This document shows, piece by piece, positions 72-1,524 of a stretch of 61,603 nucleotides of DNA. The DNA is from a virus (Duplodnaviria; Caudoviricetes). The position numbers and the translations under genes are program-made. The stretch spans positions 1-61,603 of the IMG/VR virus record IMGVR_UViG_3300032322_001005; one strand, given 5' to 3'. Numbering within the stretch: position 1 is the stretch's first letter; each line of letters opens with the position of its first letter. The notes below the pieces were generated by a model. It worked only from the letters and a program-made list of their open reading frames with translations. It was not told the origin of the DNA and searched no databases.

Positions 72-562
72 GCTCTCGCGGCGTCAGCAGGTGGGGTTTC
101 TTTACTCGCTACGGATGGCGGCGTAGAACAATGTTCTTCCGAAAGCGATTCGCAATTAGTTTCTTCTTCTATATTTTGTTCTATATTCTTTTCTTTAGTA
201 GTTACGGATTTTCCCGACTCGGGATTTTCCCGTGTCGGGATTTTCCCGTGTCGGAACGGGTCTTCAAGGTGGGGTTCATCGTAAACATAATACTCCCACC
301 CGCCGGGGTTCGCTCCACCCCTCGACCTGCGCCACACATATTTGTTTTCAATAAGCTCGCTCATGCCAGCAACCGTCGAATCGTTTCCGTCAGTGCTGAC
401 TGTTTTGAGATGCGATACGAAAATCTCCCAATCTGGAGGCAGACTCAAAAGGAATCCAAGCATGCCCTTCGCCTTCCAAGATAGCTTGGAGTTCCAAAAT
501 ATCTCGTTTGGGATTGTCGTGTAGTTCTTACTTCTTTTCTGTCTGAAGATTGTTTTGCTCAT
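72..562 (-). CDS. HTH phage replication initiator (replisome-organiser type), 3' end truncated by the contig end
   Basis: Not in the ORF track (no stop). Manual translation from ATG 562: MSKTIFRQKRSKNYTTIPNEIFWNSKLSWKAKGMLGFLLSLPPDWEIFVSHLKTVSTDG...GWEYYVYDEP; ATGA overlap with the HNH stop; internal iterons. Confidence 0.8.
205..254. repeat. iterons (3 x about 16 bp CGGGATTTTCCCGwsT), putative origin
   Basis: Tandem repeats, each with an internal CGGG...CCCG inverted repeat, inside the initiator gene next to an AT-rich tract (about 155-204), as in lambda O. Confidence 0.75.
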
Positions 563-1335
563 AAGATTCCATGATGTTTGGTGTGGCACTTATCGCAAAC
601 ACAAGTAAGAGACTTCTTTCCTTCTTGTGTATGTTCCAATCCATGGAACTTATAGTTGCTGTGATGAACTCTTAAACTTTCGCTTGAGCTACACATCGCG
701 CACTTATATTCAGCCTTCTTCCTAATTTTGCTGGCAATAATTCTCCAGTAAGGCGTCACTAGAAAATCCTCATAAGGCATTGATTTTATGTGTTCGCTTA
801 TTCTTTCATTGTCTGAATGAAAAATTATTCTATCAAATTCAGAATCAATTTGATGCCATTTAATTCCTTCCTTAAATTTTGCATTCGGCAATAGGTAATT
901 ATTGATTATTATATCTGTATATTTTGTTTTACTTTGATTATTGGTTGCAAAGAACTGCGATCGATCTTCTTCTTTTATTCTTTTTTTGTCATATAACTCT
1001 TTGTCTTTGCATGATTTGCATGTTGATGCCTTCAGCCAGTTATATTTGGCTGTGCCATTTTCTTTTTTCCTAATCTCTTCCATGTGAGATATTAGTTGAG
1101 TTTTTGTTATAGTCCTTTTCTCAATACCTTCACACCTGTCGCAAACAACCTCGCACGTAAACAATGACGGGAGTCCTTTATTTGTTCCAAACAGTTCTCG
1201 TATATCTCTATTTTCTGGAACCTTAATCGCTATGGCCTTTATCGTGTCTTTGTCCAATATTGCTCCATGTATTAGCGGCTTATTTCTCAGGACACGTATG
1301 TATCCCAAGCATTCTTCTATTAAGTTTGAATCCAT
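559..1335 (-). CDS. HNH endonuclease with zinc-binding CxxC motifs
   Basis: C-terminal YEDFLVTPYW...CAMC...VHHSNY...CDKCHTKHH; AT-rich gene. Confidence 0.8.
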   Translation of the reverse strand: MDSNLIEECLGYIRVLRNKPLIHGAILDKDTIKAIAIKVPENRDIRELFGTNKGLPSLFTCEVVCDRCEGIEKRTITKTQLISHMEEIRKKENGTAKYNWLKASTCKSCKDKELYDKKRIKEEDRSQFFATNNQSKTKYTDIIINNYLLPNAKFKEGIKWHQIDSEFDRIIFHSDNERISEHIKSMPYEDFLVTPYWRIIASKIRKKAEYKCAMCSSSESLRVHHSNYKFHGLEHTQEGKKSLTCVCDKCHTKHHGIL

Positions 1336-1348
1336 ATCTGGGTAGGGC

Positions 1349-1488
1349 GATCCCTGCGGTGGCGAACTAAAGCGGCAACTGACGCATGAGAGTGGTGAAA
1401 ACCACAGCAGGGATCATATATGTTGTTTGTTAATTTAGTTTAGTTCCTTTTTCTTACTCGGCTCTCACCCCGAGGCGCGGTTCCCCGC
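1349..1488 (-). ncRNA. C4-antisense-like structured leader (copy 1)
   Basis: Hairpins at 1457-1474 and 1477-1488; long stem 1349-1362/1402-1415; complementary pairs 1387-1392 vs 1462-1467 and 1364-1371 vs 1439-1446. Confidence 0.6.
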
Positions 1489-1496
1489 ACAGGTTC

Positions 1497-1524
1497 AAGG
1501 TAGCACTACTTCATTCCTCGTCAA
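1497..1524 (-). promoter_or_regulatory. sigma70-type promoter TTGACG-16-TACCTT with extended TG
   Basis: Directly upstream of the structured leader. Confidence 0.45.

Follow-up and report, generated by a model that had tools for sequence, protein, structure and literature searches.

Putative HNH homing endonuclease genes beside two probable mosaic lambda-type origin modules in a lake-water Caudoviricetes phage

The linear IMG/VR virus record IMGVR_UViG_3300032322_001005 (Duplodnaviria; Caudoviricetes), which is 61,603 bp long with an estimated completeness of 90% and was analyzed in full (hereafter the window), encodes two initiator-like genes with internal repeats, iniA and iniB, each of which lies next to a gene for a small HNH protein and downstream of a structured leader. 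We suggest, with a probability of about 0.72, that these are two mosaic lambda-type origin modules parasitised by free-standing HNH homing endonucleases, and not two copies of one cassette. An earlier sequence-only reading of this DNA had proposed a single, possibly mobile unit of leader, initiator and nuclease under RNA control. Comparison with relatives confirms the parts but shows them coming and going separately: as had been supposed, the region is mosaic and its HNH genes have the behaviour of mobile elements, but the three parts do not move as one unit. They are unlinked in relatives, with iniB next to only two of seven full-length HNH-B relatives and an HTH_36 neighbour at two of 20 HNH-B loci, an outcome that the proposal had itself named as grounds for abandoning it.

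At site A, which occupies the left end of the window, the following elements were assigned:

1511..1765, minus strand: orf84, a conserved small gene upstream of leader A, with orthologues in G002, G003, L085 and L086
1336..1510, minus strand: leader A, a structured 5' leader assigned to the initiator operon
559..1335, minus strand: HNH-A, a free-standing putative HNH endonuclease of 258 aa, in the slot between leader A and iniA
73..562, minus strand: iniA, the N-terminal half of the main lambda-O-like initiator, whose ATG (562-560) overlaps the HNH-A stop codon (ATGA)
206..254: site A iterons, three of 16 nt, CCGACACGGGAAAATC on the coding strand, mid-gene in full-length iniA
140..205: AT-rich tract adjoining the iterons, 71% AT versus 51% in the window

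The order leader (1510-1336), HNH-A, iniA (562 down to 73) agrees with the earlier description, except that coordinate 72 is not a gene end, iniA being truncated there. The iniA product has no Pfam match and is similar to PHROG 4707 and PHROG 428, both 'replication initiation protein' (E 2e-18 and 4e-15). In L044, where the gene is full-length, it encodes about 316 aa when read from the ATG and 326 aa from the GTG that is listed as its start. Identity to the initiator of relative G002 is 44% (E 9e-53) over the C-terminal ~215 residues, which also align with the G003 initiator. This domain is conserved across the initiators of the phage group, and the N-terminal domain of iniA is unrelated to those of the G002 and G003 initiators, which directly follow an orf84 orthologue and a homologous leader. 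Because these counterparts share the C-terminus, orf84 and the leader, iniA is the positional orthologue of the main initiator of the group, with its DNA-binding domain and iterons exchanged. A related 16-nt repeat pair is present in the iniA homologue of L046.

HNH-A consists of an N-terminal CxxC...CxxC region and a C-terminal HNH domain (residues 190-255) that matches PHROG HNH families with E-values of 2e-4 to 8e-3 (best 2.4e-4). The gene is AT-rich, as previously noted, with a GC content of 0.35 versus 0.49 for the window, and this signature recurs in all three HNH-A lineages (0.32-0.38, versus 0.43-0.52 in the flanks). The family is tiny, with just four proteins found at E<=1e-3. Once a metagenome scan (15 loci) is added, HNH-A homologues fall into three lineages, that of the window, L044 and L085 (100% identical), that of L086 (37%, with iniA 51% identical) and that of L087 (42%, iniA 64%), and in all three, each with a visible neighbourhood, HNH-A lies directly upstream of an iniA-type initiator. 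Homologues of iniA without HNH-A outnumber those with it (L046-L052, L088-L090, L092-L098 and G005), and G003, a complete genome with direct terminal repeats (100%), is without an iniA-type N-terminus, HNH-A, iniB and HNH-B.

The limits of the HNH-A slot are given by L087, which has HNH-A, and L088, which does not. These are sisters with 89/89 support on a tree of the iniA N-terminal domain (10 rows; the near-identical L085, L046, L092, L093 and L097 left out). Their leaders are 82% identical and their iniA genes 83% identical from the ATG onward, and the DNA exactly between the two is unrelated, comprising the 767-nt HNH-A gene in L087 and an unrelated 273-nt HTH_36-like open reading frame (ORF; 104 aa) in L088. 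The swap leaves iniA untouched.

This result bears on a modified form of the earlier proposal, in which the HNH gene, the initiator N-terminus and the iterons would make up a selfish 'origin conversion' module, with repair copying the nuclease together with the specificity determinant. At site A the model accords with the arrangement of HNH-A, the iniA N-terminus and the iterons as a block flanked by two conserved arms, the leader and the initiator C-terminus, that G002 and G003 also have, with the fusion of HNH-A to the iniA start in three of three lineages of known context, and with the co-conversion of flanking markers documented for T4 endonucleases in excerpts of a published account (PMC2988022). 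It is less easily squared with the L087/L088 swap, which spares iniA, and with the commonness of iniA homologues that have no HNH-A. Together with the site B data below, these observations lead us to regard the origin conversion module as unlikely; a weaker version of a 'selfish origin' could apply at site A, where a co-converted tract between the conserved leader and the C-terminal domain could take in HNH-A, the specificity domain and the iterons.

Leader A contains two short hairpins (1490-1475 and 1474-1456), an A-rich spacer and a long hairpin (arms 1415-1402 / 1362-1349) that is followed by the first start codon. Its fold is barely better than that of shuffled sequence (z-score -2.0), and RNAalifold on only five sequences, a thin sample, gave 16 pairs, nine of them compensatory, with covariation in the second short hairpin. 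A promoter-like TTGAC..N16..TAnnnT that overlaps the 3' end of orf84 was recognized by eye from alignments and was not called by the consensus scan; consensus scans for promoters and terminators gave no more sites than in shuffled sequence. The leader is kept in six lineages. In four the first ORF after it is HNH-A, and in two (G002 and G003) an initiator with the alternative N-terminus follows directly. As it is conserved in these HNH-less relatives, leader A belongs to the initiator operon and not to the nuclease.

At site B, the order leader-initiator-HNH on the plus strand was found as previously described:

47053..47955, minus strand: p300, a conserved divergent gene (300 aa), the left arm of site B
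47983..48164, plus strand: leader B, with two strong hairpins
48165..48617, plus strand: iniB, a short O-like putative origin-binding protein of 150 aa with the N-terminal winged-helix domain only
48508..48659: origin-like region of iterons, half-sites and AT-rich tract
48660..49358, plus strand: HNH-B, a free-standing putative HNH endonuclease of 232 aa, in the slot between iniB and the dCMP deaminase gene
49418..49819, plus strand: dCMP deaminase (PHROG 174, E 1e-37), the right arm of site B
50811..52079: DnaB, after the dCMP deaminase gene (PHROG 19, E 1e-78)

The iniB product matches Pfam HTH_36 (E 8.7e-12) and the O-like PHROGs 391 and 1032 at about 1e-19 (391: 1.1e-19), and the PHROG alignment spans only positions 1-104 of profiles of 281-298 positions, so that there is no C-terminal domain. 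Three iterons of 25-26 nt (48508-48585), all of which contain the palindrome TGAACnnGTTCA, are followed on the 3' side by GAACCGT half-site repeats (48588-48627) and by an AT-rich tract (within 48586-48659; 65% AT versus 51% in the window). The repeats reported earlier at the two initiators are thus real, being three of 16 nt at one and three of 25-26 nt at the other. Both genes also show two of the features expected of a lambda-O-type initiator, namely an N-terminal winged helix of the O-like/HTH_36/DnaD_N kind, assigned through PHROG for iniA and through Pfam and PHROG for iniB, and at least three direct repeats in the gene followed by an AT-rich tract. The two initiators had been called unrelated in sequence; BLASTP detects no similarity between them, but both match the O-like/DnaD-like PHROG families 428, 186 and 270.

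Outside the window, iniB homologues were found at five loci, namely L054 (99% identical) and L055-L058 (59%), and the L055 homologue has the same repeat layout with a diverged iteron sequence; iniB is absent from L004-L007 and from G001-G003. In principle, iniB may instead regulate through DNA binding or serve in exclusion, as an origin-binding-domain decoy that has operator repeats of its own and interferes with competing phages using the same origin type. The restriction of iniB to the N-terminal domain (profile positions 1-104 of about 290), its accessory distribution in a phage that already has a full-length initiator, and the inhibition of lambda by ectopic copies of the lambda origin, as described in the abstracts of two reports (PMC3349717, PMC4488673), are all consistent with such a role. 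The decoy explanation sits poorly with the three palindromic iterons followed by an AT-rich tract, an origin layout that is conserved with diverged sequence in L055, and with iniB leading the dCMP deaminase-DnaB operon, and we give it a low probability.

HNH-B has the reverse layout to HNH-A, with an N-terminal HNH domain (residues 24-100) followed by a family-specific C-terminal domain. It matches PHROG 119 (E 1.3e-11) and, through the HNH core only (residues 24-95), phrog_4581 'terminase small subunit' (E 3.7e-10). The family is again small, with 13 proteins at E<=1e-5, and a profile search gave 25 viral loci. Full-length relatives are present at seven of these (L059-L065), with iniB next door at two and missing at five. 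At L061-L065 the HNH-B relative is present and iniB absent: in L064 and L065, p300 is followed by a promoter-proximal RNA fragment and then by HNH, dCMP deaminase and DnaB, with no initiator, and L061-L063 have yet another arrangement around the HNH-B relative. A scan of immediate neighbours at 20 distinct loci (duplicates L069, L075, L077 and L078 left out, as was L068, where no ORF was called) found HTH_36 in two of 40 ORFs, both of them iniB homologues. Conversely, HNH-B accompanies iniB at only two of the five iniB loci outside the window (L054 and L057), the other three (L055, L056 and L058) having in its slot a MUG113/T5orf172 gene of 109 aa that passes the Pfam cut-off (E 1.2e-7). L055 and L057 are 98.9% identical up to the ATG of the slot, where the sequences part. 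The idea that the HNH-B C-terminal domain might serve as the missing C-terminal domain of iniB was rejected because the MUG113/T5orf172 gene replaces HNH-B at those three loci.

Empty or alternative alleles, which the sequence-only reading had proposed looking for in related phages, exist at both sites. Four relatives, L004-L007, which were found through p300 and whose p300 proteins are 65-96% identical to that of the window, keep p300 and the dCMP deaminase gene without iniB and HNH-B; window positions 47982-49366, the whole leader-iniB-HNH block, are replaced in them by about 600 nt without ORFs. The flanks of L004 and the window share 92-95% nucleotide identity, and this difference of an entire block, with breakpoints at 47982 and 49366, also fits the origin conversion module introduced above. 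That model is contradicted by the absence of iniB at five of seven HNH-B loci and of HNH-B at three of five iniB loci, and by the synonymous divergence (dS) between the window and its nearest relative, L054, which is 0.06 for iniB and 0.41 for HNH-B, with HNH-B, dCMP deaminase and DnaB together ranging from 0.32 to 0.43. By these values iniB and HNH-B have different histories in this pair; as dS is low in iniB only, they suggest a recent exchange that was confined to the iniB segment.

Leader B has a much stronger fold than its shuffled versions (z-score -7.7; none of 200 shuffles as good), and the 3' arm of its second hairpin (arms 48076-48094 / 48140-48158) buries the iniB Shine-Dalgarno sequence AGAGGGG, so that the leader probably limits iniB translation by hiding the ribosome-binding site. 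Its stems are identical in L055-L058 despite an iniB identity of only 59%, and in these relatives it is preceded by a promoter and the first hairpins of an RNA element of about 470 nt that is described below. Leaders A and B have no common sequence, and the single architecture once ascribed to them amounts to a generic layout of hairpin, A-rich spacer and long hairpin, with z-scores of -2.0 and -7.7, respectively. Nor did anything support a common RNA control at both sites, and Rfam returned zero families over the whole window at the gathering threshold, both leaders included.

The nuclease motif said to be shared by the two HNH proteins is present: their domains are 29% identical over 66 aa (E 6e-6), although HNH-A carries the domain at its C-terminus and HNH-B at its N-terminus. 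The alignments display an HNH core with zinc-binding CxxC pairs, in agreement with the PHROG matches, and presence/absence or replacement polymorphism between conserved genes, as expected of homing endonucleases, is seen at sites A and B. We also considered whether the HNH proteins serve the phage in replication or packaging and are not selfish, for example by nicking at an iteron origin to start replication or by assisting terminase. Both genes adjoin iterons, the stop codon of HNH-A and the start codon of iniA overlap, purifying selection acts on HNH-B, and HNH-A is retained in lake populations sampled between 2016 and 2024, as a working part would be. Both genes are nonetheless dispensable in close relatives, where unrelated genes replace them in the same slot, the complete relative G003 does without either, and neither adjoins the small terminase gene, which makes this explanation very improbable.

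Under the preferred reading of two origin modules parasitised by homing endonucleases, each module would comprise a winged-helix origin-binding gene with its own iterons in the coding sequence, followed by an AT-rich tract. iniA would be the regular initiator, in which a C-terminal domain common to relatives is joined to an N-terminal domain and iterons that act as a swapped specificity cassette, and iniB an accessory version with the N-terminal domain only and iterons of its own, placed just downstream of an early promoter in a cargo hotspot. Each protein is predicted to bind its own repeats and fire its origin. The HNH genes would occupy ORF-precise slots, from the leader to the iniA start for HNH-A and from iniB to the dCMP deaminase gene for HNH-B, and their products may cut HNH-less alleles of co-infecting relatives near the slot, after which recombinational repair would copy the HNH gene in and drag neighbouring sequence along. 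Such co-conversion would account for the position of the HNH genes, which is at the edges of mosaic origin segments. The leaders, in turn, would be the 5' untranslated regions of two operons, outside any mobile unit.

Several observations weigh against this interpretation. What was seen directly are the family assignments, the repeats, the allele replacements with their exact boundaries, the composition signature and the differing dS; the cleavage, homing and replication activities are all predicted. HNH-A has no Pfam match at all, and the Pfam HNH match of HNH-B (E 3.6e-4, 21.0 bits) falls under the cut-off of 21.4. HNH-B is no decaying passenger but is under purifying selection, its ratio of nonsynonymous to synonymous divergence being 0.13 against L054, versus 0.01-0.05 in its more tightly constrained neighbours. 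As iniB has no C-terminal domain, its putative role as an initiator is read from the N-terminal domain and the repeats. The tie of HNH-A to iniA, translationally coupled and found in every known context, fits a functional partnership as well. HNH-A lies between the leader and iniA in contigs from three of four independent lake studies, dated 2016 and 2024, and no clean case of an HNH-less allele at 90% identity or above was found in the lake-study contigs. One lake contig (X2) that joins 119 to 1474, skipping HNH-A and most of iniA, was not counted because the shorter side of the joint has only 27 letters.

If the preferred reading holds, the window offers a clean natural example of homing endonucleases at the seams of mosaic replication modules, in slots that are codon-exact at neighbouring start codons, and of origin specificity (initiator N-terminus and iterons) being exchanged with the remainder of the initiator retained. 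It also cautions that adjacency of genes should not be read as a functional cassette.

The ORF-free segment of about 600 nt between p300 and the dCMP deaminase gene in L004-L007 proved to be a conserved, structured RNA-like element of about 470 nt, which was found in 20 of 23 viral contigs sharing an invariant 17-mer. Its loci are:

L032:702-1208, minus strand
L037:6353-6880, plus strand
L035:3703-4216, plus strand
17 more among L021-L043

RNAalifold on 16 of the 20 loci (near-duplicates L025, L038 and L041 and the truncated L026 left out) gave 91 pairs, in which 97.0% of pair cells are standard pairs, and 29 compensatory pairs, versus 15.5 +/- 2.2 in shuffled alignments (none of 500 reached 29) and 6-11 in slid controls. 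The element contains GNRA loops, long-range helices and a promoter-like site of its own; it abuts the dCMP deaminase gene and, judging from invariant G-U pairs, lies on the same strand as that gene. The RNA region of L004 had no Rfam match at E<=10, Rfam at the gathering threshold returned two tRNAs only on L004-L008, and no copies were found in the window or G004. No sequencing run was listed as holding the element, and a literature keyword search on large phage RNAs returned nothing matching it, keywords being unable to prove absence. A further 27 matches to the 17-mer in prokaryote genomes (one genome for each of 185,579 species) were rejected as copies; they are chance matches, since nhmmer gave a single match of 32 nt (E 6.6e-4).

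Neither iniB nor HNH-B is present at any of the 20 RNA-element loci, so that the two are mutually exclusive with it, and 5' fragments of the RNA persist upstream of iniB (L055-L058) and of the HNH-B relatives (L061-L065). It is conceivable, if quite doubtful, that the element and the iniB module are functional analogues that start replication in one and the same operon region, one an RNA-based origin of R-loop or primer type and the other a protein-iteron origin, with the HNH-B family a homing endonuclease that targets the RNA gene and drives replacement of one origin type by the other between co-infecting phages. Between the 5' part of the RNA and the HNH-B-like gene, L065 (1905-2150) and the equivalent position of L064 have GC-rich sequence of another kind, in which two GCGAAAGC-type loops occur; in L065 it has a fold z-score of -3.5, and Rfam at E<=10 gave only snoRNA and lncRNA rows at chance level. 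This stretch may be a variant second domain of the RNA element. We regard the large, phage-specific RNA element, which alternates with the iniB module at site B, as the most novel result of the analysis, and one that merits its own study.

Megablast of window positions 1-20000 found no close relative among GenBank phages, and no tRNA genes were found in the window. The remaining features that bear on its ends and gene content are:

1..71: poly-C run of 71 C (poly-G on the minus strand), a contig-end artefact truncating iniA
4248..4553, plus strand: HNH-C, a third, small HNH gene (101 aa) of broadly the same type, with a weak DUF968 match and PHROG 740
56297..56809: small terminase gene
61244..61603, minus strand: C-terminal part of an ERF-family recombinase (Pfam ERF, E 1.6e-26), cut by the other contig end

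The 71-C start is an assembly-end artefact, since L044 and lake contigs carry the gene onward: contigs of three other lake-water studies extend beyond position 76 with the same iniA continuation as L044, which is 99-100% identical and joins both window ends. iniA is therefore cut at about codon 165-170 of ~316, and the run creates a false poly-Gly tail on its product. About 3 kb is absent between position 73 and 61244..61603, and holds the C-terminal half of iniA, small ORFs, an exonuclease-like gene and the N-terminus of ERF. The minus-strand ORF at 61244..61603 had been considered as the continuation of iniA and was rejected, being the C-terminus of the ERF recombinase on the far side of this gap.

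The stretch from the initiator to ERF varies among relatives, and its contents differ between G002 and G003. G002 carries another 245-aa ORF (L018:11372-12109) that looks nuclease-like by eye and has only a weak CapR match in Pfam, and G003 (L012:14552-15772) carries a 326-aa ORF and another DnaB-like helicase, a distant one with 22% identity, and is empty at the position of the DnaB gene of the window. HNH-C lies between a primase-like gene and a Holliday-junction resolvase gene and is beside the resolvase in G002 and G003 as well (71-74% identity); in L047-L049 and L092-L097, homologues with 48% identity are found on the strand opposite to the iniA homologues and about 1 kb upstream of them. 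Of the primase and DnaB that the phage had been credited with, DnaB is clear, whereas the primase-like gene is weakly supported (E 3.9e-7). A 2,541-aa ORF (29152-36777, minus strand) lies in the structural region.

The closest parallels to the HNH genes are the free-standing homing endonucleases of T4-type phages, namely the mob HNH genes, such as mobE, and the seg GIY-YIG genes of 'intronless homing'. In the available excerpts of PMC2988022, free-standing HNH and GIY-YIG genes of these phages are described in intergenic slots, with co-conversion of flanking DNA, and mob genes as having an HNH domain plus a distinct C-terminal region; its reference list cites the replacement of mobC and mobE by SegH and Hef. 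As far as those excerpts go, the window resembles this system in having small nuclease ORFs between conserved DNA-metabolism genes, patchy among close relatives and in a slot open to different nuclease families, with an HNH domain joined to a distinct, presumed DNA-binding region and with mosaic neighbouring sequence. It differs in that each slot adjoins an origin-binding gene and opens precisely at a start codon, with HNH-A translationally coupled, and in that its HNH proteins resemble known families in the HNH core only (PHROG E 1e-4 to 1e-11), their own families having four and 13 members.

In lambdoid hybrids, the N-terminal domain of O and the iterons vary together and the C-terminal domain is conserved. 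At both window sites the origin, iterons plus AT-rich tract, lies within the initiator gene, as it does inside the lambda O gene according to excerpts of PMC7466680. Unlike O, iniA and iniB are distant O-like/DnaD-like relatives with three repeats rather than four, and iniB has no C-terminal domain and its repeats are 3'-terminal in the gene; no helicase loader of the P type was found. A structured RNA upstream of an HNH gene also recalls HEARO and the omega-RNA of IscB, which is a longer protein with a RuvC domain. The window elements have no Rfam match at the gathering threshold, their HNH proteins of 232-258 aa have HNH-type matches only (Pfam, PHROG) and leader A is kept without an HNH gene; they are not members of this class. 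Terminase-associated HNH proteins of the HK97 gp74 type, found in cos phages, are likewise small phage HNH proteins with CxxC zinc knuckles, whereas HNH-A and HNH-B are not adjacent to terminase genes and are optional in close relatives. Lambda-type origins and free-standing homing endonucleases make this an ordinary kind of system, of which the window provides a new and tidy instance.

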